From Minisyncoccota bacterium (GTDB lineage Bacteria; Patescibacteriota; Minisyncoccia; Phycocordibacterales; UBA9973): a DNA stretch of 64,000 nt. Positions within the stretch are counted from its first letter, which is position 1. The number at the start of each line of letters is the position of its first letter. This document shows, piece after piece, positions 4,915-60,436 of the stretch. Location of the stretch: positions 84,957 to 148,956 of the forward strand of contig JAGOSH010000001.1 of the NCBI GenBank assembly GCA_018062425.1. Direction: 5' to 3'. Under the pieces are notes generated by a model. It ran no database searches. It was not told where the DNA came from and was given only the letters and a program-made list of their open reading frames with translations. The position numbers and the translations under genes were made by a program.

Positions 4915-4988
4915 CTTTTAACTAAACTAGTTTGTATTCTCCGTCCCCACTCGCAATAGAGTGTTAAACGATATGTTATTATACAAAG

Positions 4989-7589: not shown

Positions 7590-7647
7590 ACCTTGAAATT
7601 TAAGAAAAATCTGTCATTATAGGGTTTACGAAGTAATACTTCGTTAT

Positions 7648-7720
7648 GGTGCCTATGGTGTAGTGGTAACACAGAAGCTTGTGGAGCTTTTATCTCCGGT
7701 TCGAATCCGGATAGGCACCC
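7648..7720 (+). tRNA. tRNA-His (GTG anticodon at 7681-7683) with encoded G-1
   Basis: Acceptor GTGCCTA/TAGGCAC, extra 5' G at 7648 opposite C, T-arm GGTTCGAATCC, anticodon loop TTGTGGA; CCA not encoded. Confidence 0.9.
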
Positions 7721-7782
7721 CCGCTAAGCGGGGGTGAGGTGTGCTTAGCACACCACCCCAATAAATTTGCTATAATTTCCGC

Positions 7783-13571: not shown

Positions 13572-13600
13572 TTGACTAATTCTCGAAAAAGGAGTATATT
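13572..13600 (+). promoter_or_regulatory. sigma70-like promoter TTGACT-17-TATATT for secE-nusG-rplK
   Basis: TTGACT 13572-13577, TATATT 13595-13600; hairpin AGCCCT/AGGGCT plus T-run follows at 13606-13625. Confidence 0.55.
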
Positions 13601-13645
13601 TAAAGAGCCCTGCGAAGGGCTTTTTAAATAGAAAAAATCAAAATA

Positions 13646-19258: not shown

Positions 19259-19436
19259 AAATTTTCCTTCTTCACTTTCAACGAGTAATAACATGGTTAA
19301 CCTTAAGAATTATCCCGGCGTAAAACCCAAAACCACAACAATTAGGGTTCCAACAGAGACCCGTCCAAAAAGATAACATACTCCCTCCTCCTTCAACAAA
19401 GAAAGCGACCCTCCTGGTAGGGTCGCATTTTTTTTG
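19259..19436 (+). other. candidate independent small transcript (sRNA or 27-aa basic micropeptide mRNA)
   Basis: Promoter TTGACA 19224-19229 -17- TACTCT 19247-19252; strong terminator GCGACCCT/AGGGTCGC plus T8 at 19405-19436. Confidence 0.3.
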
Positions 19437-19546
19437 TTTTGAGTTTTTGATTTGACAAATCATGATTATATATGTATACTGATTTTGAATCGAAGAACGC
19501 ACGGCGCGTTCTTTTTTATTGTTGTACATTTAAAAATTTATTCTCA

Positions 19547-19963
19547 ATGAGGAAAGAAAAGTCCATTTACAACCTCTCTCCAGGTTGGTTGATGCATCGG
19601 TTAACCTTGAAAACAGTTAATAAAAACAAGGATTTGTTTAATGAAATTTGCGTATTGGTTTCAAGACGATTGCAGGAGAAAAAAAGGATTTATAAAAATC
19701 CTTTTCCTCCCGGTGATTATCTGGTATCAATAACCATTCATAAAACGACCTTTGACGGATTAATTTTCAAGGATAAATACAAAGACCCTGCTATTTTGTC
19801 AGGAAACAAAAAACCCCTTGTTGTTTTCAGTATTGAGGTTCTAAAAGGAAACCAGGTCAATTTAGTTGACCTACAATCAAAGTCTTCAAAATTTGCTCCA
19901 ATTACATGCAAAGAAATTTGTGTACTGGTTTTAAACCAAATGGGATTCAAAGTTTCAAACTGA
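19547..19963 (+). CDS. hypothetical protein (start taken at an internal ATG of the track ORF 19472..19963)
   Basis: Own promoter (19452-19480) and terminator (19996-20030); no motif recognised; internal EICVLV repeat. Confidence 0.3.
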   Translation: MRKEKSIYNLSPGWLMHRLTLKTVNKNKDLFNEICVLVSRRLQEKKRIYKNPFPPGDYLVSITIHKTTFDGLIFKDKYKDPAILSGNKKPLVVFSIEVLKGNQVNLVDLQSKSSKFAPITCKEICVLVLNQMGFKVSN

Positions 19964-20991: not shown

Positions 20992-21020
20992 TTGCAATTT
21001 TTCGAAACCTATAGTAGATT
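20992..21020 (+). promoter_or_regulatory. sigma70-like promoter TTGCAA-17-TAGATT for rpsL-rpsG
   Basis: TTGCAA 20992-20997, TAGATT 21015-21020. Confidence 0.5.
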
Positions 21021-21078
21021 ACCTCTGTGCCATACAGAGTCTTCGGACTCTTTTAATTTATAGCGATATAGACAAGGA

Positions 21079-22069: not shown

Positions 22070-23065
22070 ATGCCGGAATTCGATCCGGGGAAAAGAGATT
22101 TTTTAAAGAAGAGTCTTCTCACTACAGGAGCGTTTCTTTTTAAGACCAATTCAACAGTTGCTAAAACTATTGAAAAAACAACTAGGCCATCTAATATGGA
22201 ACAGTTAGGAGACAAAACAACCCTTACTGATTCTGGAGAAAAATTCACTAACGGTGAACATGTATTTAGAGTTAATTTTAAACCAGAGGGTGCAACAGAA
22301 AGTAAAGACGTCGGAGAATTGTGGCCTGTGGGATTGATGAACTTTGTTACCAGAGAAACAGACCCAGACTTATTTCAGTTGGACATGGAAAATTTGTTAA
22401 AAAAAGCTGGAGGAGTAGCTACCTCTCCAGATGGAATGACAAAGGCAGCAAATGGATATGTTTTAGAAGGTAGGTCGCTTGCTCACGGTGAAGTAGTTGA
22501 AGGTAACGGTCAAGAGGTGCCTAGGTACGGTATCGTAGTTTTGGATAATAGGGGTAAAATAACTAAGTTTACTCACGGAGCCGAGTTAGCAACTTATGAT
22601 GCACAAGGTAACGTAACAGAAAAATCAAAATTCGATAAACTTTTTTCTGAAGTTAAGAGTGCCGGAGGAAGTTTGTTTTTCTTGCCAAGCATAATGAGAA
22701 CCTATGGAGGAGAAGTAAAAAAGTTAGAAAATGAAACTATGTTAGAACAGGTGCTCGTCAGGAGGCTTGAACCAGCTGTTGATGGTAATGGAAGACGTCT
22801 ATCTGGGGCAGAGCCCGTGGAAACTTATAAAGTTGTACGCTTTGATCCAATGATTTCATACAAGAATGCTATACGCACACTCGAGGGTTTGAACAGGCAA
22901 AACTCTGACGGTACTATGTCTGCTACCACCCATATATTTATGCTAGATGGAGGACAAGATTGGGACAGGGCTGCGAAAAAGTTGAGTACAAACAATGGAG
23001 AAGAAGTAGTTGTTTTATCAGAAGGGAAGAAAGACCTTGCTACGGCTGCTCTAGTTTTTTATTAA
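22070..23065 (+). CDS. hypothetical exported protein with Tat-like (KR) signal
   Basis: PEFDPGKRDFLKKSLLTTGAFLF N-terminus; weak resemblance (FMLDGGQDW) to phosphodiester glycosidase/DUF2233 proteins. Confidence 0.5.
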   Translation: MPEFDPGKRDFLKKSLLTTGAFLFKTNSTVAKTIEKTTRPSNMEQLGDKTTLTDSGEKFTNGEHVFRVNFKPEGATESKDVGELWPVGLMNFVTRETDPDLFQLDMENLLKKAGGVATSPDGMTKAANGYVLEGRSLAHGEVVEGNGQEVPRYGIVVLDNRGKITKFTHGAELATYDAQGNVTEKSKFDKLFSEVKSAGGSLFFLPSIMRTYGGEVKKLENETMLEQVLVRRLEPAVDGNGRRLSGAEPVETYKVVRFDPMISYKNAIRTLEGLNRQNSDGTMSATTHIFMLDGGQDWDRAAKKLSTNNGEEVVVLSEGKKDLATAALVFY

Positions 23066-23158
23066 AGGCTCCACGGTCATTTCAAAATTTGTCTACTCTT
23101 TACAAGATGACAGATGTTACAAGACCTCCGCTCACTCTGTGTGGTAGACTAAAAGGGG

Positions 23159-25225
23159 ATGCTATCTAAACTTACATTTCAAATAACAACTGCGCTCGGG
23201 GCTTTTTTACTTTTTCTTGCTGAGCCTTTTCTGGCTAAATTTATTACACCAATTGTCGGGGGGTCATTTTCAGTTTGGTCTGCAACAATTGCTTTTTTTA
23301 CCATAGCTCTTTTTTTAGGTTATGTATATGCGTATTCAATTCTTAGGTTAAGCAAAAGTTGGCAGATAGGGGTCCACGGTACATTGGTCTTGTTGTCACT
23401 CGGGTCACTTTTTTCGGGATATCTTTTGTGGGGTTTACCCCTCCTGCCCACTACTAACTTTTTACCAATTCAAAATTGGACTCCCTTTCTTTCAGTGTTT
23501 GTTTTGCTTTCATATTCTATATTAATTCCATTTATTCTTTTGTCATCGACGACTATATTACTCCAACGCTGGCAATCTTCGATTAAGGAAATAGAAGCTA
23601 ATCCCTACCGTCTTTATTCAATATCAAACATTGCCTCATTTGTTGCCCTGGGCAGTTTTCCTTTTCTGTTTGAGCTTTTTATGCCAATGTCGACCCTGTC
23701 CTTTTTCTGGAGTGCGTTTTTTATATTGTATGTAGTATGTCTTTTGTTAGCCATGCGAACATTTGCGAAGAAAGCAGTGATCATCGAGGCACCTACCCAA
23801 GATAGTAACGAGAACCATCCTACAACCAAACAGATTCTGTACTGGCTCGGATATTCCGCACTAGGCACATGGATTCTTGTTTCGGTTACCACTAGCCTTA
23901 ACCAGGGGATTAGTGGCTTTCCATTGTTATCAATCATCCCGTTAGCATTATATTTACTTACCTTTGTAATTGTGTTTCGGGGAGTTTCATTTCCTCCTGT
24001 TTTGGCACCCATAATAATTTTGTCTATTCTCTTGAGCCTACCCATAGAGATACACCTTTGGACAGTGATAGTCCTATCACTCCTCACTTTTCTTTTTTTT
24101 GCGTGTTTTTTCTTACACGAAGCAATATATAAAACAAGGCCAACCATAAAATATCTACCAACATTTTACCTTGTGGTTGCAGGTGGGGGAGCGTTGGGAA
24201 GTTTTCTGGGGAGTATCGTAGCACCTCTAATATTTCCAGACCTGTACGAAACTTTTATAGGCATGCTTGTAGTCATGTTCCTCATAATTCCGACATTAAA
24301 AGGATTAATGATGCAAACTGGATTTAATAAAAAAAGGTCCGGCGCGATTAAGGCTTTGTTGGTTTTTGTATACTTAATGATTATTGCCTCATTTATATTT
24401 CCAAGATTTGGAAAGAATTCAGAAGTACCAACCAGAACTTTTTACGGAATTTATAAAATATATGAGACCAAAGAAGACGTTGGGTCAATGCGGAAATTAA
24501 TTTCCGGGGACATTATTCACGGATCACAATTCACTGATGCGGCACGAAGTGCGGTACCCACTACGTACTATAGTCAAAAAAGCGGAGTAGGAATCGCCCT
24601 TCTTAACATTCGCCAGAATCCAAAATCTGTGGGTGTCGTTGGTCTGGGTACAGGCACCATGAGCGCCTATTGCGGTAGCAATGACCGATTTCGCTTTTAT
24701 GAAATTGACCCAGCTGTTGCCTTAATCGCCAGAAATAAATTCTCATTTATTAGCGATTGCGAAAACAGATCAGGTGTTGTTGAAATAATTATTGGCGATG
24801 CACGCCAATCCTTAGAGAGAGAAGAGGGTAACAATTTTGACATGCTTATTGTTGATGCGTTTACAGACGATGCTATACCCACACATCTTTTGACCCAAGA
24901 ATCTTTTGTAACCTACAAAAAGCATTTGAAAGATACCGGGGTACTCGCAGTGCATGTTTCAAATAAATTCCTAAGTTTAGATCCCATAGTTCTAGGTACT
25001 GCAAAGTCCATAGGTTATTCTGCTCGAGTTATTAAATATATACAACCATCCCCCGAAGAAAGTAAGCTTGGAGCAACAGGATCGAAGTGGGTAATTCTCG
25101 GAAGTGAGGCCTTCCTAAAGGAAGCATTTCCAAACACTGTGTACCCAACAACACCAATAGGTGATCCTTGGACGGATGATAAAAACAGTATCCTACCGGC
25201 GTTTTTAGAAAAAAAGAAGTTTTAA
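23159..25225 (+). CDS. fused polytopic membrane domain / spermidine synthase-like methyltransferase-fold protein
   Basis: About 12 TM segments, then VGVVGLGTGTMSAY and DMLIVDAFTDDAIPTHL (PABS-like). Confidence 0.65.
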   Translation: MLSKLTFQITTALGAFLLFLAEPFLAKFITPIVGGSFSVWSATIAFFTIALFLGYVYAYSILRLSKSWQIGVHGTLVLLSLGSLFSGYLLWGLPLLPTTNFLPIQNWTPFLSVFVLLSYSILIPFILLSSTTILLQRWQSSIKEIEANPYRLYSISNIASFVALGSFPFLFELFMPMSTLSFFWSAFFILYVVCLLLAMRTFAKKAVIIEAPTQDSNENHPTTKQILYWLGYSALGTWILVSVTTSLNQGISGFPLLSIIPLALYLLTFVIVFRGVSFPPVLAPIIILSILLSLPIEIHLWTVIVLSLLTFLFFACFFLHEAIYKTRPTIKYLPTFYLVVAGGGALGSFLGSIVAPLIFPDLYETFIGMLVVMFLIIPTLKGLMMQTGFNKKRSGAIKALLVFVYLMIIASFIFPRFGKNSEVPTRTFYGIYKIYETKEDVGSMRKLISGDIIHGSQFTDAARSAVPTTYYSQKSGVGIALLNIRQNPKSVGVVGLGTGTMSAYCGSNDRFRFYEIDPAVALIARNKFSFISDCENRSGVVEIIIGDARQSLEREEGNNFDMLIVDAFTDDAIPTHLLTQESFVTYKKHLKDTGVLAVHVSNKFLSLDPIVLGTAKSIGYSARVIKYIQPSPEESKLGATGSKWVILGSEAFLKEAFPNTVYPTTPIGDPWTDDKNSILPAFLEKKKF

Positions 25226-25255
25226 GCAATATTTTGCAAATATCCTTGCTTTTAT

Positions 25256-25284
25256 TTGCAAAAAAGGGGTTTGTGGGGTATAGT
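25256..25284 (+). promoter_or_regulatory. sigma70-like promoter TTGCAA-17-TATAGT for fusA
   Basis: TTGCAA 25256-25261, TATAGT 25279-25284. Confidence 0.55.
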
Positions 25285-25328
25285 GACGGAAGCGCTAGAC
25301 GCGCTTTTTTATTAGTTAAATTACAATT

Positions 25329-27479
25329 ATGGAAAGAGATTACCCACTAGAGAAAGTTAGAAATTTTGGAATTATTGCGCATATCGATGCTGGTAAGACT
25401 ACCACCACCGAGCGTGTTTTATTTTATACAGGTGTGTCCCACAAAATCGGTGAAGTTCACGATGGTGAAACTACAACCGACTGGATGGAACAGGAACGAG
25501 AGCGAGGTATCACTATTACTTCTGCTGCAGTTACTTGTTTCTGGACACCGACCTACGCGGCTCCAACAGACAAGAAGTTGAAACACCGTTTCAACATCAT
25601 CGATACCCCTGGGCACATCGACTTTACAGTGGAAGTGAAAAGATCTCTTCGAGTACTCGACGGAGCAGTGGTTGTGTTCGACGGTGTGGCCGGTGTAGAG
25701 CCACAGTCTGAAACCAACTGGCGTTATGCTGACGAAGCTAACGTTCCTCGTATCTGCTTCATCAATAAGCTCGACCGAACTGGCGCGTCTTTTGAACACT
25801 CCTACAAAACGATTTTGGATCGTTTGACCAAAAAAGCTGTCCGTATGCAAATCCCAATCGGGCTTGAAGAAAAGCACGATGGTGTTATCGATCTCCTTAA
25901 AATGAAGGCGTATTACTTTGAAGGAGAAATGGGTAATACTGTAATAGAAAAAGAAATCCCAGAAGAATACAAAAAAGAAGCAGAAGGTTACCACAATGAA
26001 CTTGTAGAAAAAATTGTTGAAAACGATGAAGCTCTGATGACCGAATACCTGGAAGGTATTGTGCCAGGTTATGACACTTTGAAAAAAGTTCTCCGTAAGG
26101 CTGTAATCGCAAACGCAATATTCCCAGTGTACGCAGGTTCGGCGCTCAAGAACAAAGGTGTTCAGCTTGTACTCGACGCTGTGGTTGACTATCTACCAGC
26201 TCCTACTGATATCCCACCTATCCCTGGTATCGACCCTAATACTGACGAGCCAACAGAGCGCAAAGCTTCTGACTCAGAGCCTTTTTCTGCTCTTGCTTTC
26301 AAAGTCGCTACTGACCCATTCGTAGGACAAATCATTTTCTTCCGTGTTTACTCTGGTTCTCTTTCAGCTGGAAGTTATGTTTACAATCCTCGTACACGAA
26401 ACAAAGAAAGAATCGGACGTATCTTGCGTATGCATGCGAACGACCGGGAAGAAGTAAAGAAAGTTTACGCTGGTGAAATCGCAGCAGCGGTAGGACTCAA
26501 AGATACCATTACTTCCGACACTATTTGTGACGAAGCAGCTCCAGTAGAACTAAACCGTATCGTTTTCCCTGAACCAGTTATCTCTCTACGTATTGAACCA
26601 AAGACAAAAGCTGACCAAGAAAAAATGGGTATGGCATTAAACCGTCTAGCTCAAGAAGACCCAACTTTCAGAGTTACTACTGATCAAGAAACAGGGGAGA
26701 CCATCATCGCTGGTATGGGTGAACTACACTTGGAAATCATTGTTGATCGTATGAAACGCGAGTTTACTGTCGAAGCAAACGTAGGTAAGCCGCAAGTTGC
26801 ATACAGAGAGACTATCAATGGCACTGCTGAAACAGAAGGAAAATACATCAAGCAGTCTGGTGGACGTGGTAACTACGGTCACGTAAAGATCAAGGTAAAG
26901 CCGATGGTAGCATTAACCAAAGAAGAGATAGAAGATCTACCAAAGAACACCAAACGTTCTGAAGCTTTCGAATTCATCAACAGCATCAAAGGAGGTGCTA
27001 TTCCTCAGGAATACATCGCTCCTTGTGAAAAAGGATTTAAAGAAGGTCTCGACCGTGGTATCCTCGCTGGGTTTAAAATGGTAAACGTTTCAGTAGAGCT
27101 ATGGGATGGATCTTTCCACGAAGTGGACTCCAACGAAATGGCTTTCAAAATCGCAGCTTCTATGGCAATCCAAGACGCATGTCGTGCTGCTCGCCCAGTA
27201 ATCCTCGAGCCGATGATGAAGGTTGAAGTTGTAACCCCAGATAAATTCATGGGTGACGTCACCGGTAACCTATCTTCAAAGCGTGGAATCATCGAGGGCC
27301 TAGAAGACCGTGGTATGAACAAGGTTGTGAAGGCTATAGTCCCTCTTTCTGAAATGTTTGGATACATGACCGGACTACGTTCTATGACCGAAGGCCGAGC
27401 ATCATTCACCATGGAGTTCACTCGTTACGATATTGTTCCAAACAACGTAGCAGATACAATCATCGCAGCTCGTAAGTAA
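25329..27479 (+). CDS. fusA: translation elongation factor G
   Basis: [25 protein letters not shown]-domain motifs; 716 aa. Confidence 0.97.
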
Positions 27480-27491
27480 GTATTTAATCAT

Positions 27492-27512
27492 CCCTGCCTG
27501 TCGCAGGCAGGG
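27492..27512. repeat. GC-rich palindromic element CCCTGCCTG-TCG-CAGGCAGGG
   Basis: 9-bp perfect stem, 3-nt loop, 12 nt after the fusA stop, no T-run; core shared with 29148-29169. Confidence 0.6.
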
Positions 27513-27547
27513 CGCTAGAAAGTAATTAGTGGTATAATCTAAATAAT

Positions 27548-29125
27548 ATGTTAAACAGTCTTAAAAATCTTCTAAAAAAGAAGAAGGTGCTTGTGTTGGG
27601 CGGGGTAATAGTTGCCGTAGTGCTTGTTTTTGTATTCAAAAACGGTAATGGAGAAAGTTTTTCAACCATCAGTCCTGCTTTTGGAACTTTGACTCGCAGT
27701 GTCCAAGCAACTGGCCAAGTGGTTTCTTCGACTGACCTGGATTTATCTTTTGCTAAATCAGGCATAGTGAGCTCGGTGAATGTAAAAGTTGGTGACAAGG
27801 TCAGGAGAGGTCAAGTGTTGGCAAGTCTCGATTCCGGAAGCGACAGGGCAGCCGTCACCAAAGCCAAGGCATCGGTTCTGGGAGCTCAAGCAAAACTCAA
27901 AAAAATAATCGAAGGTTCTTCAAACGAAGAGATTGCCTTGGCGCGAGTTAATTTGGAGAATGCAAAACAAGATTTAAAAAACACCGAAAATACTCAAACA
28001 ACCTTGGTCAAAAATGCTTACAGCAAATTAATGAATTCGACCCCGGAAGCAGTACCCCAAGATTCGCTTGGTGCTATCGCTACTGCACCAACCATAAGTG
28101 GTACTTATAAACTAGGAACCGAAGGTAAAATAAGTATCAGCGTGTACAGTTCGGGTAATGGGATCATGTTTTCTGTTGCCGGTTTGGTGACGGGTTCAGG
28201 TTCTGTAAATTCTACCAATCCACAACCACTTGGTGATTCTGGTTTGTATGTTTTATTTAGTACTACTACAAATTTGAGCGGTACTAACTGGGTGGTTAAC
28301 CTTCCAAACAAGAAAGCCACTGACTACCTAGCAAACGAAAGCGCATACTTGGCTGCACAGAATACCCAAAGTGCTGCTATTGCTTCTGCTCAGTCTCTGG
28401 TTAATCAACGCGAAGCAGAGCTCAACATTAAACTAGCTTCTGCACGAGATTCGGACATAGAACTAGCCCAAGCAGACGTCCTGTCCGCCCAGGGTGAGCT
28501 AGAGCGTGCACAAGCGTCTTACAGCGACAACCTGATCATAGCTCCAGAAAATGGCACCATAACAAAAGTTGAAACAAAATACGGTGAGTTGGCTAGCACT
28601 AATGTGTCAGCCATAACCCTCGAAGATATAGAGAATTTATACATTGAAGCTGATATCAACGAATCAAACATTGCTTCGATAAAAGCAGGTCAAAGTGTGG
28701 ACACAACTTTTGATGCCATCGGTAAAGACAGAATATTCAAAGGAACTATTTCACAAGTTGATCCGTCTTCGGTTACAACCGAAGGGGTTGTTAATTACAA
28801 AATAAAAGTTTCCATCGGAGAAGAGAATTTCACTATTCGTCCTGGAATGAACGCCGAGATCAGTATTTTGATTCAAAACATAGAGAACGTTATTTCTGTT
28901 CCTAACGCAGCTATCATACAAAGTGATGAGTTGATCGTAGAGGACAACAGTGTTCCACACGTATACGTCCCAGGGCCACAATACAAAAAATATCTGAATG
29001 TTGTAACCGGTGATAAATACAAAAAAGTTGAAGTTAAAACAGGTGTGGTGGGAGACGGCAACATGGTGGAAATCTTATCTGGAATAACCAAAGAAGATAA
29101 AATCGCAATCGTTGAAGAAAAATAA
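27548..29125 (+). CDS. HlyD/MacA-family membrane-fusion (periplasmic adaptor-like) protein
   Basis: N-terminal TM, biotinyl-lipoyl-like VKVGDKVRRGQVLASLD, coiled-coil region, beta-barrel C-terminus. Confidence 0.75.
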   Translation: MLNSLKNLLKKKKVLVLGGVIVAVVLVFVFKNGNGESFSTISPAFGTLTRSVQATGQVVSSTDLDLSFAKSGIVSSVNVKVGDKVRRGQVLASLDSGSDRAAVTKAKASVLGAQAKLKKIIEGSSNEEIALARVNLENAKQDLKNTENTQTTLVKNAYSKLMNSTPEAVPQDSLGAIATAPTISGTYKLGTEGKISISVYSSGNGIMFSVAGLVTGSGSVNSTNPQPLGDSGLYVLFSTTTNLSGTNWVVNLPNKKATDYLANESAYLAAQNTQSAAIASAQSLVNQREAELNIKLASARDSDIELAQADVLSAQGELERAQASYSDNLIIAPENGTITKVETKYGELASTNVSAITLEDIENLYIEADINESNIASIKAGQSVDTTFDAIGKDRIFKGTISQVDPSSVTTEGVVNYKIKVSIGEENFTIRPGMNAEISILIQNIENVISVPNAAIIQSDELIVEDNSVPHVYVPGPQYKKYLNVVTGDKYKKVEVKTGVVGDGNMVEILSGITKEDKIAIVEEK

Positions 29126-30417
29126 TGAAATCAAGTAAAGAAAATTTACCTGCCTACCGGCAGGCAGGTTTCAATAGAAATATAAAAGTTGGCTGGTTTT
29201 TGGCCAAGCGGGAACTCAAGCGGGCTAATAAATGGACCACAGGTCTTATCGTAGCCGTGATGACTTTGACGTTTTTGAACCTGGTTGTTGTCTCTGGAAT
29301 TCTAATAGGACTTATTCAAGGTTCTGAAGATGCTCAGAAAAAATACGCAATTGGTGATATTGTTATTTCTCCTTTTCTAAATAGAAACGTAATTCTACAA
29401 ACCCCAGAAGTTGAAAGTATAGTAAAAACTATTCCAGGGTACAGAAACCATACTGTGAGGTATTCAGGTTCAGCTCGAGTAGAAGACACCTATAGACAGA
29501 CAACAAAACCAGGAGAGAAAAAAGGTGGCGCCGGGGCGCCAATATTGGGTATTGACCCAGTTCTCGAAGATAAGTTTTCTGGAGTTTCAAAATTTGTTCT
29601 ACGAGGTGAATATTTGAATGCATCTGATGCAGACAGTATATTGATTGGTAAAAACTTTCTTTACGAATTCACTCCAATTGATGCTCCTGGATTTGAAAGT
29701 TTGAAAAACACCAATGTTGGTTCTAGGGTGAAACTTACTTCCGGTAACATAGAAAAAGAATATTTCGTCAAAGGAATTCTAAGTTCCAAGGTAGATACTT
29801 TTGACTTCTCAGTGGTGATGCTCGCTAGTGAAGCTAGAAAATTATCTAGTCAGACTGACTTAAATGCTGGATCCATTGCTATCCAATTGCAACCAGGAAC
29901 TGATCCTAATCTAGCTAAAAAGTTTTTGATAGACAGTGGGGTAGAAGAGTGGGCGCGAGTGCAAACTGCCGAAGAGGCGTTTCCTAAATTCTTGAAAGAT
30001 ATCAAAGCAACTTTTGGTATCCTAGGGTCAGCGATTTCCGGCATAGGTTTGGTGGTTGCTTCAATTACGATCTTTATTGTGATTTTTGTTAACGCTATTA
30101 CTCGCAGACGATATATTGGAATATTGAAGGGTATTGGTATAAACAAACAAGCTATATTGTTCTCGTATATGTATCAAGCAACCATATATGCTTCACTGGG
30201 TATTTTATTAGGCATGATGTTAATATTTGGTTTCATTAAACCTTATTTTGCTGAAAACCCAATAAACTTTCCTTTCTCAGACGGAATACTGGTAGCTACT
30301 TTGTCCGGAACTTTCACCAGAGCTTTTATCTTGCTAGTGACGACTATGATTGCCGGATACATACCAGCGCGAATAGTTATAAAACAAAATACATTATCAG
30401 CAATCTTGGGAAGATAA
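29125..30417 (+). CDS. ABC transporter permease, FtsX/MacB-like
   Basis: N-terminal TM, large extracytoplasmic loop, three C-terminal TM segments (FtsX domain). Confidence 0.8.
   Translation: MKSSKENLPAYRQAGFNRNIKVGWFLAKRELKRANKWTTGLIVAVMTLTFLNLVVVSGILIGLIQGSEDAQKKYAIGDIVISPFLNRNVILQTPEVESIVKTIPGYRNHTVRYSGSARVEDTYRQTTKPGEKKGGAGAPILGIDPVLEDKFSGVSKFVLRGEYLNASDADSILIGKNFLYEFTPIDAPGFESLKNTNVGSRVKLTSGNIEKEYFVKGILSSKVDTFDFSVVMLASEARKLSSQTDLNAGSIAIQLQPGTDPNLAKKFLIDSGVEEWARVQTAEEAFPKFLKDIKATFGILGSAISGIGLVVASITIFIVIFVNAITRRRYIGILKGIGINKQAILFSYMYQATIYASLGILLGMMLIFGFIKPYFAENPINFPFSDGILVATLSGTFTRAFILLVTTMIAGYIPARIVIKQNTLSAILGR
29148..29169. repeat. GC-rich palindromic element ACCTGCC...GGCAGGCAGGT inside the 5' end of the permease ORF
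   Basis: CCTGCC at 29149-29154, GGCAGGCAGG at 29159-29168; encodes LPAYRQAG. Confidence 0.55.
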
Positions 30418-30420
30418 AAC

Positions 30421-31095
30421 ATGATTCAAGTTAAAAATTTAAGCAAAATATTTCAAAGTGGAGATGCGCAAATAATTGCTTTAAACAATCTTACTTTTTC
30501 TGTACCAGAAGGGCAGTTCTTGACCGTCACAGGGAAATCAGGTAGTGGTAAATCAACACTGCTTTACCAACTAGGATTGCTAGATTTGCCAACCTCTGGG
30601 GAGGTGTATATAGATGGTATCGAATACACCAAGCTGGAAGAGAACGCTCGCACAGTATCAAGGCTAAATGACTTGGGGTATATCTTCCAAGATTATGCTA
30701 TTTTACCTTCACTCACTGCGCTTGAGAACACAATGCTGCCTCTCCTGATGCAGGGTTATGATATGAAAGAATCAGAAGAGAAAGCTAAAAAGGCTTTGGA
30801 TAAAGTTGGATTGCTAGATCGTATGAACAACCTACCTTCTGCGTTATCTGGTGGGCAGCAACAGCGTGTGTCTATCGCGCGCGCGATATCCCATGAGCCC
30901 AAAATTATATTTGCCGACGAACCGACAGCTAACCTGGACTCGGAGACTTCGAAACATGTGATTGACGCTTTTGTAAAACTAAACAAAGAAGGCCAGACCA
31001 TCATCATGGTAACTCACGAAGAAGAATATGCTCGTCTAGCTGACCGCACCATCACTATGGCGGACGGAAACATCGTCTCGGATGTTTTGAACTAA
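30421..31095 (+). CDS. ABC transporter ATP-binding protein (MacB/LolD-like)
   Basis: GKSGSGKST Walker A, LSGGQQQRVSIARA signature, IFADEPT Walker B. Confidence 0.92.
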   Translation: MIQVKNLSKIFQSGDAQIIALNNLTFSVPEGQFLTVTGKSGSGKSTLLYQLGLLDLPTSGEVYIDGIEYTKLEENARTVSRLNDLGYIFQDYAILPSLTALENTMLPLLMQGYDMKESEEKAKKALDKVGLLDRMNNLPSALSGGQQQRVSIARAISHEPKIIFADEPTANLDSETSKHVIDAFVKLNKEGQTIIMVTHEEEYARLADRTITMADGNIVSDVLN

Positions 31096-31194
31096 ACTTT
31101 GATTTTCCACACAGACTGGTTGTGTTATGGGTTTTTATAAGAGACAATACAGTAGTGAAAGAGTGCGGGGGATTATTTTATCTAATATTGATTC

Positions 31195-32043
31195 ATGAAA
31201 AAATATATTAAACTTTTTTTACTCATTTTAGTTTTATTACCTTTTTCTGCTACAGCTTATGAACTCCAGCCGTATTACGTACAAAAAATTGATGAGATCG
31301 AAAGTAAAATAACCGTCAAAGATAGATACGGTAAGTTTTACGTACTAACATATGGTCCTGAATGTAGTGGATGGTGGACGTATACGGGGCAGAGAATATA
31401 CATCAACGCTAGAGGGCCATTCCTAGACGGTGTGGAAGACGAAATATTTCTAAATGACTTAGGAATTCGAGCTTGTCCTGTTCGGAAAGTTTCTTATGTC
31501 AAAGGCGGTCCTGGTTATTACGTGATACACCAAAGTAGTATCTGTCCGGACCACGGCTTCATTTCGCCAGTCGATGCCAATATGTGTGAGTGCACCTCTG
31601 GATATAAATTCGATATTGACCGGCACATTTGTGTCCCTTTCAAAACGAACGATCAAATTTGTAAAGAAAGATTCGGTCTTTACAGTGTCTGGGACGGTAC
31701 TTTTGACCAGAAACATGCGCTTAATTGTATCTGTAAAACAGGCTTTATCTGGAATCAGAGTAAGACAGCCTGCGTCAGAGACAAGGTTGCCACTAACAGT
31801 GTTGGAGCGGTAGCCAAAACAGATATACAAACCACAAACGAAACACCAGGTGCTGCTCTGGGAGATAGTGCTGAGAGCGCAGAGAACGTACAAACAGAAA
31901 CAGAAACAATCTTAACCAATAATACTCAGAATAATACTCAAAGAGCACCTTGGTACAAGACATTTTTAGGAATGGTAATTATATTGGTAGTGGTGATGCT
32001 CGTTGTATACAATTTAGTAAAAGCCTACAAAAATCGACAGTAG
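31195..32043 (+). CDS. secreted Cys-rich protein with EGF-like repeats and C-terminal TM anchor
   Basis: Signal peptide; CECTSGYKFD..HICV and CICKTGFIWN..ACV repeats; C-terminal hydrophobic segment. Confidence 0.55.
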   Translation: MKKYIKLFLLILVLLPFSATAYELQPYYVQKIDEIESKITVKDRYGKFYVLTYGPECSGWWTYTGQRIYINARGPFLDGVEDEIFLNDLGIRACPVRKVSYVKGGPGYYVIHQSSICPDHGFISPVDANMCECTSGYKFDIDRHICVPFKTNDQICKERFGLYSVWDGTFDQKHALNCICKTGFIWNQSKTACVRDKVATNSVGAVAKTDIQTTNETPGAALGDSAESAENVQTETETILTNNTQNNTQRAPWYKTFLGMVIILVVVMLVVYNLVKAYKNRQ

Positions 32044-32296
32044 TAAATATATTTGACATTTCCTAACATAAAGGTTAATTTTGATTAAATTCTTTCACTA
32101 AATCTTTCTTTGTTGTATGGGAAAAGCAGACGCAATCTATAAAGCCTGTATGGGCTTTCTTATTCTCGTGTTTTTCAGTTTCGCCTTGTACGTTGGCTTT
32201 CATTATTAGCCTTTCGGTAAAAAAAGGTTTCTTAATAACCTAAAAACTTCACAATGTGTGAAAAATATTGAGCGGGTAGTTTCCGTTATAAAACTG

Positions 32297-32320
32297 CCCA
32301 TCTTTTAGATGGGTTTTTTT
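32297..32320 (+). terminator. rho-independent terminator
   Basis: Stem CCCATCT/AGATGGG plus T7. Confidence 0.7.
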
Positions 32321-32478
32321 ATTTGGAAATTTCACATTGACAAATCATGTAATTTTTATAAGATAAAAATATGTTTACCAAAAGTAACCAATATATGCTG
32401 ATTAAGATTTCTACCCGAACCACCGCTTGGGGCGTTACTTTTGCTTTAGCTTAATCCAGAACAATAATCTAAACCAAA

Positions 32479-32520
32479 AGCAGCTCTCCAAGCCCTAGGC
32501 CTGGAGAGCTGCTTTGTTCT
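32479..32520 (+). terminator. rho-independent terminator (12-bp stem)
   Basis: AGCAGCTCTCCA/TGGAGAGCTGCT followed by TTTGTTCTTT. Confidence 0.65.
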
Positions 32521-32588
32521 TTAAGCTCTTTGACACTTTTTCTAACCTTTCGGCCTAAAAGCCGAATACAAACCCAACCCGCTTTGTT

Positions 32589-32972
32589 ATGAAAAACATA
32601 GCAATATTCTGCTTATTGTTCGCATGTATTAGCGCTTCTGCCCAAAATATTCTTCTGGGCGAAAATGCTTATGTTGAATTTTTGCACCATGACACTATTA
32701 AGATAGAGTTGTATAACTTGTACACTTTCTCTGTACTGAAAAAAGATAAAATCAGAGTAGAAAAAATGCAATATGCTTACAACAAAGCAACGAAGGGCTT
32801 GGTCGTCATAAAATCAAGCATAGTAGTCAACGAATCTGATGTCCCTGAAAACATCTGTGAGTTCACATTCAAGAGTGATGACATATTGGTTAAGGCTTAT
32901 AGAAAGCCTACACATTGTTTTCTCTTGCTGATGAATAAGGCCTACACCCATTTTGGGATTGCGCTTAGGTAA
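32589..32972 (+). CDS. small secreted hypothetical protein (signal ending ...ISASAQN)
   Basis: Signal peptide; shares its upstream element with the next gene. Confidence 0.5.
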   Translation: MKNIAIFCLLFACISASAQNILLGENAYVEFLHHDTIKIELYNLYTFSVLKKDKIRVEKMQYAYNKATKGLVVIKSSIVVNESDVPENICEFTFKSDDILVKAYRKPTHCFLLLMNKAYTHFGIALR

Positions 32973-33031
32973 AAATACATCAAATTTTTCTAACTCTTCG
33001 GTTAATCCGAATACAAAAGCTTCATCACATT

Positions 33032-34498
33032 ATGAAAAAGCTAAATCTAACCCTCGCTTTTTTAGTCGCAGTTGACTGTATTTCCGCTCAAGATTTACCA
33101 TTGCAAAACCAACCTGGAAACAATGTCCAACCGCGTGGCGATTGCATTGAGGTATTGAATACCTCACAATTCTTCGCCGGTGAATTCGGTGGAGGGCAAG
33201 GAACTTCTTCTGTTTGTTTTTCATTCCCGTCCACATGTGGAGCGGAAGGCAGGATGAACTCAAATTCAGTTGTGGACTTCCTACAGTTCTCGGTTGGTAG
33301 TGATACTTCAGGTGTTATTGGGGTTGGTTCGTCAGGCTTCGGTGATCTTGAATATCTTTCGGTTGGTCAGGTAGTTCTTCTGCCATTTGATTTTTCACCA
33401 CCGCGGGCGTTTGAAGGACCGATTCACATTGACGTTGGGTCTGATGGATTCATTGTTGAAAAACTTTCAGATGGCTTAACTGGGGATATGTTTTTTACAG
33501 TTAGTTTACAGAATTTCTCTATAACCTTGTTGTCAAACAGGAGTCATTTCACCAACTACAGCATTGAGTGTAAGCCGCTCAATGTATGCGCTGATTATGT
33601 CGGTGTTCAGTATGCCGTGGCTTGCCCAGGGAAGGACTTATTTCTTGTGTCTAAATGTTATGACTCCGATTACAAGACAATTTGGATTAATCCAGAGGGC
33701 GACACCATTATCTGCGAACTGGATACCCTGCGTGTAAATGACCCAGTTTCTGTCGGAGCATATCAATGGATAACCCCATGCAACAAGGGGTATGTGTTGG
33801 TTTACAACCCAGACTCGGTTAGAATCGAAAATCGGCAAATTTTTTGCTCAAGCAAGCAAAAACTTTTTTTGCCAACTGGCCTGAAGGGTAATTGGTCAAA
33901 TGGGGTAGAAAACTCAAACTACATTCAGGTAACAAGTCCTGGTACTTACTGGGTAAATGTTTCAAACTGCATACAGGATTCAATAGCTGTAGATATAATT
34001 TTTGAGGATCTTGATTTGGACTTACATTTCGTTCCAGACGTGGATACAATACTGTTCTTTCAAGAACTAAAAGTTATTCCTGAAGCAATATCTGGTACAA
34101 CATTTACTTGGCAAAAAGATGGTCAACCTGTCTGGGGTTACTATGGAACAGGACTCTATACCATAACCGGCACCTATGACGAATGTCGAGAGCAGGATAC
34201 GATTCTGGTGATTCCGGAACTTTTTTCTGAATGCGATTGGCCTGTATATAAGCCTACTGTGTTTTCGCCAAACAGTGATGGGGTAAACGACCTGTTTCAA
34301 GTTTTTGGGCCCGACGGTTCGGTATCTAAGATATGGGTGTACGACAGGTGGGGAGGGCTCATGTATTCTGGTGAGGCTTGGGATGGTACCTGGGAAAGCA
34401 AAGAGCTCAAGCCCGGTGTTTATACATTTAAGGCACGGGTTGTTTGGGGTTTTGAAGAATGTTCACGTATCTATGGTGATGTTACCTTAATTCGGTAA
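33032..34498 (+). CDS. secreted protein with T9SS type-B (gliding-motility-associated) C-terminal sorting domain
   Basis: Signal ...DCISAQD; C-terminus VFSPNSDGVNDLF..WVYDRWGGLMYSGEAWDGTW..PGVYTFKARV..GDVTLIR. Confidence 0.8.
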   Translation: MKKLNLTLAFLVAVDCISAQDLPLQNQPGNNVQPRGDCIEVLNTSQFFAGEFGGGQGTSSVCFSFPSTCGAEGRMNSNSVVDFLQFSVGSDTSGVIGVGSSGFGDLEYLSVGQVVLLPFDFSPPRAFEGPIHIDVGSDGFIVEKLSDGLTGDMFFTVSLQNFSITLLSNRSHFTNYSIECKPLNVCADYVGVQYAVACPGKDLFLVSKCYDSDYKTIWINPEGDTIICELDTLRVNDPVSVGAYQWITPCNKGYVLVYNPDSVRIENRQIFCSSKQKLFLPTGLKGNWSNGVENSNYIQVTSPGTYWVNVSNCIQDSIAVDIIFEDLDLDLHFVPDVDTILFFQELKVIPEAISGTTFTWQKDGQPVWGYYGTGLYTITGTYDECREQDTILVIPELFSECDWPVYKPTVFSPNSDGVNDLFQVFGPDGSVSKIWVYDRWGGLMYSGEAWDGTWESKELKPGVYTFKARVVWGFEECSRIYGDVTLIR

Positions 34499-34613: not shown

Positions 34614-34641
34614 TTGACATTAAAAATTTATCTGCTAATAT
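34614..34641 (+). promoter_or_regulatory. strong sigma70-like promoter TTGACA-16-TAATAT for tuf and the S10 operon
   Basis: TTGACA 34614-34619, TAATAT 34636-34641. Confidence 0.6.
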
Positions 34642-34787
34642 GAACCGTAACTGCACTTTCGCAGTTTTTTCGTTCCTAATTAATAAAATTATAAGTAATT
34701 GTATTAGTAGCAGGGCCTTGGTAAATTCTCGTATATTGAGTCCCAGTTATTAATGAACCCCGACGCCAGAGGCGCGGGAAAAATCAT

Positions 34788-38911: not shown

Positions 38912-39658
38912 TTATTTGAGGAGATTCCAAATCATGTCGAATTTCTCTTCTTCTGAGTGGCTGATGTCCTCACTTTCTATAACAATAGACATGAGTTCAT
39001 TCTTGGTTGTTACAATAACCACCTTGCCAGGCGCAATAAATACATTGGAAGTTAATTTGAAACCCTTGGGTACGTATTTTACCTCGCGGAGCTCTGTTGC
39101 GTTATTGGTCTGAATGAGCTGGCTTTCTTCACCCTGATAGCAGATCATCCGGTAATGAATATTCTTTTTCATGCGGGTTGGTACGAAATACTCAACATCG
39201 TATTTAAGACCAATGAATTTATAAGCCTCGTTCAGTGACCCAATGTGGCGGATAGTGGTGTTAGGGCGCTCAAGTAATTCCTCGGCTACTTTTTCAAAAC
39301 CACTAACCCCGTAATACATGCGAACGGTGGGCTTTTTTTTATTTTCATCTCGCATAGAGGCGATTATTTCCGGGACTATTTTTTCGAATTCTTTTGATTG
39401 TTCAGTAATGCGTTTAGATAGAGCAGTGGGGTGGAGTGCTCGCGCCTTTTTAGATCTGTTTGGTCCAAAGCATACTGCAAAACCGCGTTTCTCCAAGCGT
39501 TCAATGATGTGGTGGGTGGTTATTCTGTTTAACTTTGCTTCTTTGGCTATGTCGCTTATCAACGCTTCGCCAATGTTCACCATCGCTAAATACACCTTGG
39601 ATTCATTGGCCGAGAAACCGAAATTCTCTAGTATTGATTTAATTTCTTTTATTTTCAT
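38912..39658 (-). CDS. TrmB-family winged-helix transcriptional regulator (track ORF extends to 39685)
   Basis: N-terminus FGFSANESKVYLAMVNIGEALISDIAKEAKLNRITTHHIIERLEKRGF; TrmB-like C-terminal domain length. Confidence 0.7.
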   Translation of the reverse strand: MKIKEIKSILENFGFSANESKVYLAMVNIGEALISDIAKEAKLNRITTHHIIERLEKRGFAVCFGPNRSKKARALHPTALSKRITEQSKEFEKIVPEIIASMRDENKKKPTVRMYYGVSGFEKVAEELLERPNTTIRHIGSLNEAYKFIGLKYDVEYFVPTRMKKNIHYRMICYQGEESQLIQTNNATELREVKYVPKGFKLTSNVFIAPGKVVIVTTKNELMSIVIESEDISHSEEEKFDMIWNLLK

Positions 39659-39663
39659 ATATC

Positions 39664-39682
39664 TTGTACAAAATTTGTACAA
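39664..39682. promoter_or_regulatory. putative operator: two palindromic TTGTACAA boxes 11 bp apart
   Basis: TTGTACAA at 39664-39671 and 39675-39682, immediately upstream of the TrmB-like start; further TGTAC cores at 39740-39745 and 39772-39777. Confidence 0.45.
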
Positions 39683-39838
39683 CATTAATATGTTTACTAT
39701 ACCACAAAAGTCTTTATTTACAAGGCCCTATTAAAGAACTTGTACTTTTTTACATTAAGTTAACATAATCATGTACAGAAAAATATATAATTATATATTG
39801 ATTTTGAACAACATTCCTTAACAAAAAAACATGTCATC

Positions 39839-40024
39839 ATGGCAAAGAAAAATCAAATAGACTCTAAAACACAGGAGCAGATCGATGCACTGCGCCAGGT
39901 GTTCGAAGCTCTAATTTATGTGCCACTAGATGTCCTCGACGACAAAGTGGAGGACATCAAGGAAGAAAATAAAAAAAAGGAACAAAATAAAAAAAAGTCA
40001 TTTTGGGAGGATTTTGATGATTAA
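39839..40024 (+). CDS. small acidic hypothetical protein (61 aa)
   Basis: Divergent from the TrmB-like gene; followed by a 12-bp-stem terminator. Confidence 0.35.
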   Translation: MAKKNQIDSKTQEQIDALRQVFEALIYVPLDVLDDKVEDIKEENKKKEQNKKKSFWEDFDD

Positions 40025-40038
40025 CCATCATCTCAATC

Positions 40039-40077
40039 AAGACACGCTTGGTATAATATCAAGCGTGTCTTTTTTTT
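40039..40077 (+). terminator. rho-independent terminator
   Basis: AAGACACGCTTG/CAAGCGTGTCTT plus T8. Confidence 0.8.
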
Positions 40078-40103: not shown

Positions 40104-40131
40104 TTGACTTTTATTTATATTTTGGTAGTAT
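40104..40131 (+). promoter_or_regulatory. sigma70-like promoter TTGACT-16-TAGTAT re-starting the S10 operon at rpsS
   Basis: TTGACT 40104-40109, TAGTAT 40126-40131. Confidence 0.55.
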
Positions 40132-40173
40132 GAGGCGAAGCTCGATTCAGAGCTTTTTGTTTACTTAAATTAC

Positions 40174-43635: not shown

Positions 43636-43663
43636 TTGACATTATCAGGAATTTTGTTAGTAT
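43636..43663 (+). promoter_or_regulatory. internal sigma70-like promoter TTGACA-16-TAGTAT upstream of rpsN
   Basis: TTGACA 43636-43641, TAGTAT 43658-43663. Confidence 0.45.
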
Positions 43664-43781
43664 AAGGCGCAAGGTAATAGTTTTTGCTTAATCCGTTTTT
43701 CTCCTCCGACGCTCTGGTGTCCAGAGGTTCGGAGAAAAAAAACGAGATATTGCAAAATAGAATACCTAATATTATTTACAT

Positions 43782-43967
43782 ATGGCAAAAACATCAGTCA
43801 TCGCACGATCGCAAAAGAAACCAAAGTTTTCTACCCGAACAAAAAACAGGTGTTTTCGCTGTGGCCGAGGTAAGGGGTTTATGAGAGACTTCAGTTTATG
43901 CAGAATTTGTTTCCGTGAACAGGCCAACGAAGGTAATTTGCCTGGAGTTAGGAAGTCTAGCTGGTAA
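43782..43967 (+). CDS. rpsN: 30S ribosomal protein S14, zinc-binding type Z (61 aa)
   Basis: CFRCGRGKG...CRICFRE CxxC pairs. Confidence 0.93.
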   Translation: MAKTSVIARSQKKPKFSTRTKNRCFRCGRGKGFMRDFSLCRICFREQANEGNLPGVRKSSW

Positions 43968-50260: not shown

Positions 50261-50294
50261 TTCACTTAAACTTTTTTGATGTATAATAGGTAGA

Positions 50295-53908: not shown

Positions 53909-53944
53909 TTTTGTGCCATTTATTTTAAATGATATAATTTTAAT

Positions 53945-54364
53945 ATGGACAAGAGGAAGCTTTTCAATCGGCAAGCATTACTGGTGGCAATCATTGCTCT
54001 TGTTAATTATGGCGCTATCAAGTTCCATTGGTACTATTCATTGTGGTGGTTTGATATGCCGATGCACTTTTTGGGTGGTATGTGGGTAGCCATGTTGTTA
54101 GCTTGGTATTTATCAGATGACCGGTTTTCAACTGATTCAGTAGGGCGGGTTATATTAGGTGCTTTTATAGTAGGTTTGTCTTGGGAAGTTTTCGAACTTT
54201 TGCTAAATGAGCAATTTGTACAGAACGCCTATGACCTGCCGGATACATTATCAGATATTTTCTTTGACCTCTCGGGAGCATTTACGGCAGTATTTTACGT
54301 AGCTTTACGTATTATGAATATTCCGGAAAGTGGGTTAAAATTCTACAATGCAGAAAAAAGTTAA
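53945..54364 (+). CDS. small polytopic membrane protein
   Basis: 4 hydrophobic segments; TGaTATAAT lies 6 nt before the ATG. Confidence 0.55.
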   Translation: MDKRKLFNRQALLVAIIALVNYGAIKFHWYYSLWWFDMPMHFLGGMWVAMLLAWYLSDDRFSTDSVGRVILGAFIVGLSWEVFELLLNEQFVQNAYDLPDTLSDIFFDLSGAFTAVFYVALRIMNIPESGLKFYNAEKS

Positions 54365-60365: not shown

Positions 60366-60436
60366 GGTTGAATTATAACACTTCGATTATAAAAATGAGA
60401 AAGGCCACGGGAGTGTCCAGTGGACTCTCTCGTGGC

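Follow-up and report, generated by a model that had tools for sequence, protein, structure and literature searches.

Across a lineage of Patescibacteria, a fixed module recurs at the start of transcription units, in which a full promoter is followed, at or close to the predicted transcription start site, by a short GC-cored hairpin and a T-run. Six such modules lie in the window, that is, the whole 64,000-nucleotide stretch of DNA analysed here, and at all six sites the -35 and -10 boxes, the hairpin and the T-run that an initial annotation had reported were found again at the positions given below. The module stands beyond chance, as enrichment and positional controls both show. Its components are of known kinds, namely 5'-terminal stem-loops and intrinsic and leader terminators, and their recurring fixed combination across the Patescibacteria lineage appears to be undescribed in the literature searched. 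Our preference, held tentatively and at somewhat less than an even chance, is for a dual-use element, which would pair up the 5' end of the local mRNA and would also terminate upstream read-through.

The EF-Tu encoded by the tuf gene of the window has its best match, at 90% identity, in a Patescibacteria MAG, and the subsequent matches come from Paceibacterota, Yonath-, Kaiser- and Campbellbacteria. Another protein encoded in the window is identical to a hypothetical protein of 'Candidatus Pacebacteria', and the genome is of the Paceibacteria ('Pacebacteria') type, with relatives known from the Hainich wells H41, H43 and H51. The classical gene order of the str, S10 and spc clusters is kept, yet it is interrupted by inserted genes. 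Leaderless genes are common in the window, with a TGnTATAAT box lying 6-8 nt 5' of the ATG (examples at 1010, 4989, 7783, 50295, 53945 and 59604), and the contrast that had been drawn between such genes and the small number of leadered units having a full promoter is correct for the examples in the window. The description of the leadered units as translation-apparatus operons, on the other hand, was too broad: the unit at 19452 carries a gene (19547-19963) for a lineage-specific hypothetical protein of 138 aa, which is no recognisable translation gene. Conversely, infC and, in this window, rpsN are translation genes that have a full promoter without the module.

All six modules are on the + strand. 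A consensus scan, run independently, called promoters at 13572, 19452, 25256, 34614 and 40104, and also returned terminator-like hairpins at 19492-514, 21036-51, 25288-308, 34649-66 and 40137-56, which are five of the six module sites. The tuf module (34614..34670) has its -35 box TTGACA at 34614-19 and an extended -10, TGcTAATAT, with the hexamer at 34636-41; the predicted +1 is T34648/A34649, the hairpin AACTGC/GCAGTT at 34649-66 (6 bp, 6-nt loop, -6.4 kcal/mol) is followed by a T-run at 34665-70, and a 117-nt leader runs to the ATG at 34788. In the secE module (13572..13630), the boxes TTGACT (13572-77) and TATATT (13595-600) precede a predicted +1 at G13607, the first base of a GC core, GCCCT/AGGGC (13607-20, loop GCGA), after which come a T-run at 13621-25 and the secE ATG at 13646. 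As a correction to the initial annotation, this hairpin forms the core of a longer palindrome of 14 bp (13597-13630), which overlaps the -10. The module of the 19452 unit (19452..19517) consists of TTGACA (19452-57), TATACT (19475-80), a predicted +1 at G19487, the hairpin GAAGAACGC/GCGTTCTTT at 19492-19514, starting about 5 nt after the predicted +1, and a T-run at 19512-17.

The rpsL module (20992..21054) has TTGCAA at 20992-97 and TAGATT at 21015-20, which is the usable -10, with a 17-nt spacer and 8/12 consensus matches; TATAGT was rejected as the -10 of this promoter on account of a spacer to TTGCAA of only 12 nt. Its predicted +1 is G21027, its hairpin AGAGTC/GACTCT with a UUCG loop (21036-51) starts about 9 nt later, its T-run covers 21051-54 and its ATG lies at 21079, preceded by a Shine-Dalgarno sequence (SD) of its own, AAGGA. 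An alternative rpsL hairpin, CTCTGT/ACAGAG at 21023-39, overlaps this one and lies mostly upstream of +1. The fusA module (25256..25310) combines TTGCAA (25256-61), TATAGT (25279-84) and a predicted +1 at A25291 with a hairpin that is AGCGC/GCGCT (25291-25305) in the local transcript and extends to GGAAGCGC/GCGCTTTT (25288-25308) in read-through RNA; the T-run is at 25305-10, and the ATG at 25329 comes after a 20-nt AU-rich leader without an SD. Finally, the rpsS module (40104..40158) has TTGACT at 40104-09, an extended -10, TGgTAGTAT, with the hexamer at 40126-31, a predicted +1 at A40138, the hairpin (G)AAGCTC/GAGCTT(T) at 40137-56, a T-run at 40154-58 and its ATG at 40174, and the rpsS sequence of the window is identical across four independent metagenome assemblies. 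When the predicted transcripts of the six sites were folded, the hairpin was the minimum-energy structure (-6.4 to -11.5 kcal/mol), with modest z-scores for individual hairpins (-0.8 to -2.5), and in the short leaders the stretch between hairpin and AUG was AU-rich and predicted to be unstructured. Apart from these units, the tRNA-His gene of the window has a hairpin at +1 without a T-run, and the tRNA genes of relatives have no such hairpin, for which reason it was given no weight as evidence.

The position of the hairpin relative to +1 depends on how the start site is predicted, and this was calibrated on leaderless genes. Because TATAAT-like -10 boxes of Patescibacteria genes lie most often 6 nt from the ATG, as is characteristic of leaderless mRNAs, +1 was taken as the 7th base after the -10, which agrees with the spacing reported across bacteria (PMC12641261). 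The only Patescibacteria start sites found in the literature are those of the distant N. lyticus, which were derived from RNA-seq coverage and are used in the same work. On this prediction, the claim that the hairpin sits at +1 holds for secE, fusA, tuf and rpsS, where the first paired base is the predicted +1 itself, and does not hold for the 19452 unit and rpsL, for which unpaired 5' overhangs of 5 and 9 nt are predicted. Among 33 intergenic cases, selected in a way that would have let the stem start range from roughly -6 to +10 of +1, the stem starts within -1 to +3 of the predicted +1 in 21 and contains it in nine, and only three leave 4 or more unpaired 5' nt. With 30 of the 33 stems starting at most 3 nt after the predicted +1 or containing it, the geometry supports the suggestion of a 5'-terminal stem-loop, a structure that begins about 0-3 nt from the 5' end.

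Several counts set this arrangement apart from coincidence. Promoters with at least 9/12 consensus matches that end 0-16 nt upstream are found for only about 2% of window positions, and for 4-5 of the roughly 12 intergenic terminator-like hairpins on the + strand of the window. The survey was then defined by about 50 Patescibacteria tuf loci (49 fetched), with 31 non-Patescibacteria tuf loci as control; the Patescibacteria part comprised 1.74 Mb counting both strands and 327 promoter matches of at least 10/12. After the -10 of these promoters, 19 centres of hairpins with a T-run fall at 10-19 nt, against 0-8 in every other 10-nt bin, and the control loci have no such peak. The enrichment is about 6-fold for hairpins with a T-run and only about 2-fold (30 against about 15) for hairpins regardless of the T-run, and because it drops in this manner when the T-run is not required, the T-run is regarded as part of the element. 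Of the 23 tuf leaders, 14 carry the strict module, compared with an expectation of 0.2 after shuffling and with 0-1 when the position is shifted as a control.

The initial annotation had named the absence of the arrangement from orthologous loci of relatives as an observation that would speak against it; this comparison was made, and the arrangement is kept at the orthologous tuf, secE, rpsS, rpsL and fusA sites. For tuf, the same architecture lies upstream of the gene in 23 Patescibacteria genomes, the promoters having been picked by promoter score alone in 20 of them and via the module in three. The consensus of these leaders reads TTGACn, 16/17 nt, TAnnAT, 7 nt, A, n, CGCA, loop, TGCG, 0-3 nt, T5-7; the CGCA arm begins 8-9 nt after the -10 in most of them, and the predicted +1 is an almost invariant A in a discriminator that is otherwise unconserved. 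The stems vary complementarily (CTGC/GCAG, ATCGC/GCGAT, AATCGC/GCGGTT, ATGCGC/GCGTAT), and that of the closest relative, L002, is identical to the stem in the window. RNAalifold returned no consensus structure on a plain MAFFT alignment of the 23 tuf promoter-leaders, because loop lengths differ, and structure was judged instead by hairpin detection in each sequence with the shuffle and positional controls. In the survey of tuf loci, the module is present in loci of Kaiser-, Yonath-, Adler-, Campbell-, Zambryski- and Taylorbacteria type and is absent from the more distant Patescibacteria examined, namely Nealson-, Portnoy-, Moran- and Uhrbacteria and WWE3.

Other units behave similarly. L002 carries the module at rpsL, fusA and tuf alike; its fusA stem is AGCAC/GTGCT where the window has AGCGC/GCGCT, a compensatory change of A-U to G-C when compared with the window, and its rpsL stem, GAGTCC/GGACTC, starts 6 nt after the -10, while rpsL of L086 has a different, long structured leader. 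The module is present upstream of rpsS in six of the eight relatives that have an intergenic promoter there, with GAGCTC-, GAGCC- or CCCGC-type stems (modules with other stems than that of the window are those of L010, L014, L017, L019 and L027), and some relatives have it upstream of rpsN/rpsH. A metagenome scan with NusG yielded 80 close relatives for secE, and in 33 related loci the secE module consists of TTGAC(T/A), 16/17 nt, TAnnAT and a hairpin with T-run, with varying stem cores (GCCC, GCCCC, CGCC, GGCC, TCCCC). For the 19452 unit, the promoter and leader are conserved nearly base for base in L085-L087, where the protein is only 59-63% identical. At orthologous tuf, fusA, rpsS and secE sites, which have different complementary stems, the structure is kept while its sequence changes. 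Exact-protein look-ups for transcript-derived contigs returned no record for tuf and rpsL, and for rpsS only metagenome assemblies, which are uninformative on transcript ends.

On the dual-use reading, a sigma-70-type promoter (TTGAC[A/T] or TTGCAA, a 16-17 nt spacer and TAnnAT, often with TGn) would start transcription no more than 3 nt from the base at which pairing begins in a GC-cored hairpin of 4-9 bp, with a T-run of 4-7 next to it. The hairpin of the local mRNA would then leave 0-3 unpaired 5' nt, and such a paired 5' end may deny access to an RppH-type pyrophosphohydrolase, to RNase J and to the 5' sensing of RNase E. It is known that RppH of Bacillus subtilis needs at least 2 unpaired 5' nt and prefers at least 3, and that 5'-terminal stem-loops stabilise Escherichia coli mRNAs (PMC3997798, a review, and its references). 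The result would be a protected 5' end for leadered, highly expressed mRNAs in genomes where most other genes are leaderless. For polymerases arriving from an upstream gene, the same hairpin and U-tract would act as an intrinsic terminator, most clearly at secE and fusA, whose stems reach upstream of +1, and the termination of read-through would separate transcription units in a compact genome. The start sites, the stabilising effect and the termination efficiencies in this scheme are what we infer from the sequences and their predicted folds. Several features count against it: a pure 5' stabiliser needs no T-run, yet the T-run persists even in the absence of read-through from upstream, and overhangs of 9 nt at rpsL and 5 nt at the 19452 unit are predicted. 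The universal T-run is only partly explained by dual use, and the many tuf stems of 4 bp are of marginal strength for protection and for termination alike.

Read naively, as the initial annotation put it, each module would be an efficient intrinsic terminator about 25 nt into its own transcript, and this is disfavoured by the weakness of the stems. The promoter-proximal hairpins have a GC-rich stem and a U-tract as intrinsic terminators do, though the stems are short, with a median of 7 bp and -7.0 kcal/mol, compared with 11.5-12 bp and -16 to -18 kcal/mol for gene-end terminators of the same genomes (Mann-Whitney p about 3e-6); the core stems measure 5 bp and 8 bp, respectively (p about 2e-8). 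Weak hairpin-plus-T-run elements in intergenic DNA are 5-fold likelier than strong ones to be promoter-linked, and many tuf stems have only 4-5 bp, the 4-bp ones reaching -2 to -4 kcal/mol. Given such weak and short stems, inefficient termination of the unit's own transcripts is to be expected, and the element should be at most a weak terminator there. A leaky promoter-proximal terminator or pause could still serve as a global attenuator, at which a fraction of polymerases, set kinetically by the NTP or UTP level or by NusA and NusG, would pause or release 20-26 nt after initiation and translation and secretion operons would be co-tuned; this is a serious rival, though we lean against it. It would account for the T-run, which is present in 23/23 tuf leaders and in all secE and rpsS modules, starts at a fixed distance of about 24-25 nt after the -10 in tuf, is indistinguishable in quality from the T-tract of gene-end terminators and is what makes the post-promoter enrichment specific. 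The stems ending in A-U and the TTNTTT-like runs are also features of the weak, NusG- and NusA-dependent terminators of B. subtilis (PMC8060035), and the secE cores of -8 to -10 kcal/mol with U5-6 are plausible partial terminators. Besides the weakness of the stems, however, about one third of the tuf leaders have 2-3 non-U bases between stem and T-run, and attenuation does not require an exact start at +1, yet the tuf hairpin stays at +1 in relatives despite leaders of 120-180 nt. No antiterminator and no ligand- or protein-binding domain precedes the hairpin, and with the hairpin beginning at the predicted +1, an antiterminator has no room to form upstream; at gathering thresholds, Rfam returned only tmRNA and tRNA, with no leader or riboswitch at any of the six sites, and at E<=1 only terminator-driven sub-threshold matches away from them. 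The growth-rate attenuation device suggested in the initial annotation is neither favoured nor eliminated by these results. The 19452 unit with its non-translation protein and infC without the module likewise fit poorly with co-tuning of the translation apparatus. A more specific proposal, which we consider rather unlikely, is a one-way, factor-gated mini-terminator or, in another version, a lineage-wide kinetic attenuator tied to nucleotide supply: because the element lies in about the first 25 nt of the transcript, fresh, sigma-carrying polymerases without NusA and NusG may pass it while mature complexes from upstream terminate, or the output of all translation-apparatus operons may follow the supply of nucleotides, which these organisms scavenge from hosts.

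The upstream neighbours bear on the suggestion that the modules are insulators with the start site inside the stem, which is clear for secE and fails as a general account. In its purest form, which is improbable in our judgement, the hairpin and T-run would simply be the terminator of the upstream gene, with the next promoter packed before it and without any function in the downstream mRNA, early sigma-bearing and Nus-free complexes reading through. At secE of the window, the co-directional upstream gene ends at 13557 without another terminator; among relatives, 26 of 27 loci have a co-directional upstream gene, often ending 0-25 nt before the -35, and 31 of 33 loci have no other terminator. 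The full secE stem reaches -13.5 kcal/mol (-15 to -17 in the nearest clade), against -8.4 when folded from +1. In this clade, read-through RNA alone includes the A-tract that separates the -10 from the GC core; pairing of this A-tract with the T-tract would give such RNA a terminator of normal strength, while RNA from +1 keeps the core of -8 to -10 kcal/mol. From these models it is clearly supported that the secE hairpin would be the upstream gene's only terminator, with the start site within the extended stem. Outer pairs are also lost in the local transcript at fusA, L010 rpsS and L014 rpsN, and four of the six window modules follow a co-directional gene without another terminator; the position suits the end of the upstream unit at secE and, plausibly, in the case of fusA, rpsL and tuf as well. 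It does not suit a terminator relative to the local promoter or behind a divergent neighbour. Even so, in at least 5 of about 30 cases the gene upstream of the module is divergent, and the module also directly follows strong separate terminators at 19405-26 (19452 unit), at 40039-71 (rpsS), in L085 and in L087. A loss of at least 3 kcal/mol in the local transcript occurs in only 5 of the 33 cases, tuf-type stems, at -3 to -7 kcal/mol, would terminate any transcript poorly, and a terminator before the promoter, an order that also occurs in these genomes, would insulate equally. A generally A-rich discriminator that lengthens the read-through stem was considered as well and rejected as a rule, holding for secE and a few others among those five cases. 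Since the module is kept in places where nothing would read through from upstream, it must also act on its own transcript. Turning to the downstream side, the U-run could be a translational enhancer, a landing site for S1 and the 30S subunit on mRNAs without an SD, and this is very unlikely as a full explanation. The leaders after the hairpin are mostly without an SD and, at secE, fusA and rpsS, only 17-25 nt long, and the T-run of L010 ends 3 nt before the rpsS ATG. A precedent is the E. coli rnd (RNase D) leader, in which a stem-loop and U8 between promoter and start are reported by Zhang and Deutscher to be required for translation. The tuf T-run, however, is 117 nt from the start codon (120-180 nt in relatives), that of the 19452 unit is about 30 nt away, and rpsL has its SD; the U-run may have a role in binding S1 or the 30S subunit where leaders are short, and not in tuf. 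Least of all would we credit a DNA-level element or coincidence, such as operator sites, cruciforms or chance hairpins in AT-rich intergenic DNA. The modest folding z-scores and a semi-conserved CGCA..TGCG palindrome shared by the tuf arms are in keeping with it, but chance is ruled out by the enrichment and the positional controls, and a one-sided T-run is unexpected for a symmetric protein-binding site. A shared operator or transcription-factor site is ruled out, as stems differ between operons and co-vary between genomes.

Among known systems, the 5'-terminal stem-loops of E. coli ompA and papA, the B. subtilis aprE leader and T7 phi10 likewise place a short stem at or near the 5' end of highly expressed mRNAs, with structure rather than sequence conserved, and their rationale is the same, that RppH, RNase E and RNase J need unpaired 5' nt (PMC3997798). 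The modules described here differ from them in always having a terminator-grade U-tract, in recurring lineage-wide at many operons and in possibly terminating upstream transcription, the stabilisation itself being putative. Intrinsic terminators, including the weak NusA/NusG class of B. subtilis (PMC8060035), share the GC-cored hairpin, the terminal A-U pairs and an equal U-tract. The element studied here, unlike them, lies downstream of the next promoter, 0-3 nt from its predicted start site, and its stems have about half the length of those of gene-end terminators and are weaker by about 10 kcal/mol. Leader attenuators, such as the E. coli S10 leader with L4 and NusA, B. subtilis pyrG and the r-protein leaders L10 and L20 of Rfam, also place a terminator-like structure between promoter and first codon. 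In contrast to these, the modules lack an effector-binding or antiterminator structure, any transcript sequence upstream of the hairpin and an Rfam match; their hairpin begins at +1, where leader attenuators have theirs tens to hundreds of nt downstream, and the stems differ by operon. The rnd leader is said to be similar in that a terminator-like hairpin and U-run in the 5' UTR still gives a full-length translated mRNA; it is, by comparison, a single gene and not a lineage-wide arrangement, its position relative to +1 is not known to match, and the tuf U-run lies far from its start codon. The literature search on promoter-proximal terminators found nothing equivalent, and no description of a fixed module of promoter, +1 hairpin and U-tract.

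To our knowledge, almost nothing is known about how gene expression is controlled in the Patescibacteria (CPR), which are uncultured. The genes that carry the module are tuf, fusA, rpsL, rpsS, rpsN and secE, and the predictions are precise and testable, with start sites expected at G13607, A25291, A34648/9 and A40138 and, possibly, short RNAs of 20-26 nt. In genome annotation, these sites will be taken for the ends of operons by terminator predictors, while they are probably operon starts. If dual use is true, very small genomes would reuse one sequence both as the 3' end of one unit and as the protected 5' end of the next, and if the attenuator is true, ribosome synthesis would have a simple global regulator. 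Either version of the one-way or nucleotide-coupled proposal, if true, would amount to a global level of transcription control that has not been described before in Patescibacteria.

Two operons of the translation apparatus are broken up in this genome. The S10 operon is interrupted between rplB and rpsS (38912-40071) by a minus-strand gene for a TrmB-family regulator (38912-39685) and a plus-strand ORF of 60 aa (39842-40024), the latter followed by a strong terminator of its own (40039-71), and the same insertion is found in four independent metagenome assemblies. The str operon is fragmented across 22070-34498, with two large ORFs without Pfam match lying between rpsG and fusA (22070-25225), and an HlyD/FtsX/ABC efflux set, a cEGF-like protein and a CHU_C (type IX secretion signal) protein encoded between fusA and tuf. 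In the closest relative (L002), by contrast, rpsL-rpsG-fusA-tuf are contiguous.

A leaderless or near-leaderless state is common among the genes of the window, where a -10 element of the TGnTATAAT type stands 6-8 nt before the ATG and the -35 element is weak or absent, as at 1000-1012, 4975-4991, 7771-7785, 50281-50297 and 53930-53947, and at 60366-60381 on the minus strand. Across the Patescibacteria loci, the distance from -10 to ATG peaks at 6 nt. The tuf leader stays long downstream of its +1 module (a short hairpin at the predicted +1 and a T-run, behind a -35/-10 promoter), covering 117 nt in the window (34671-34787), and in relatives (L002-L020) the distance from -10 to ATG at tuf is 120-185 nt. 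This long leader contains a GC hairpin, CCCGACGCC..GGCGCGGG, immediately 5' of the start codon, and it gave no match in an Rfam search.

In the rpsN (S14) region (43636-43785), the promoter TTGACA-16-TGtTAGTAT lacks the +1 module, and the leader contains a long imperfect hairpin (about 43696-43742) between T5 and A8, which may be an autoregulatory structure, whereas two relatives (L014 and L015) carry the short hairpin and T-run at this position. At rpsL the window and L002 have the short module, while in another relative (L086, region 2925-3066) the leader is about 110 nt long, with a long-range stem, GGAATGAAGT..ACTTCATTTCATTCC, around a GC hairpin, and may act as a regulatory leader of the S12 operon.

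Two further regions concern RNAs. The tRNA-His region (7593-7760) has the promoter TTGAAA-16-TGtCATTAT and a leader hairpin of 6 bp (ACGAAG/CTTCGT, 7628-44) that begins at the predicted +1, has no T-run and was not conserved in the relatives in which it was sought; two GC-rich hairpins, also without T-runs, follow the tRNA (7723-7760). Within a 545-nt intergenic region, a possible small non-coding RNA (32337-32520) has a promoter with 10 of 12 consensus matches (TTGACA at 32337, TAAGAT ending at 32364) and, about 115 nt after it, a strong 14-bp terminator (32480-32512); an Rfam search returned no match for it.

Upstream of the lineage-specific gene for a 138-aa hypothetical protein, the region 19278-19426 contains a possible minus-strand ORF of 33 aa (MLSFWTGLCW...), with a strong GGAGG SD that is unusual for this SD-poor genome and a bidirectional hairpin (19405-26) upstream of it on that strand; relatives have instead a plus-strand ORF of 61-64 aa in this gap. 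The promoter and leader of the 138-aa gene (19452-19546; in three relatives, 1407-1500 of L085, 1408-1502 of L086 and 1408-1500 of L087) are far more conserved than its protein (59-63% identity), and the conserved stretch includes a perfect palindrome, AATCATGATT, in the spacer of the promoter and, in the leader, the motif TTGTTGTACATTTAAA. This pattern suggests that the gene is under additional regulation, via an operator or an RNA element.
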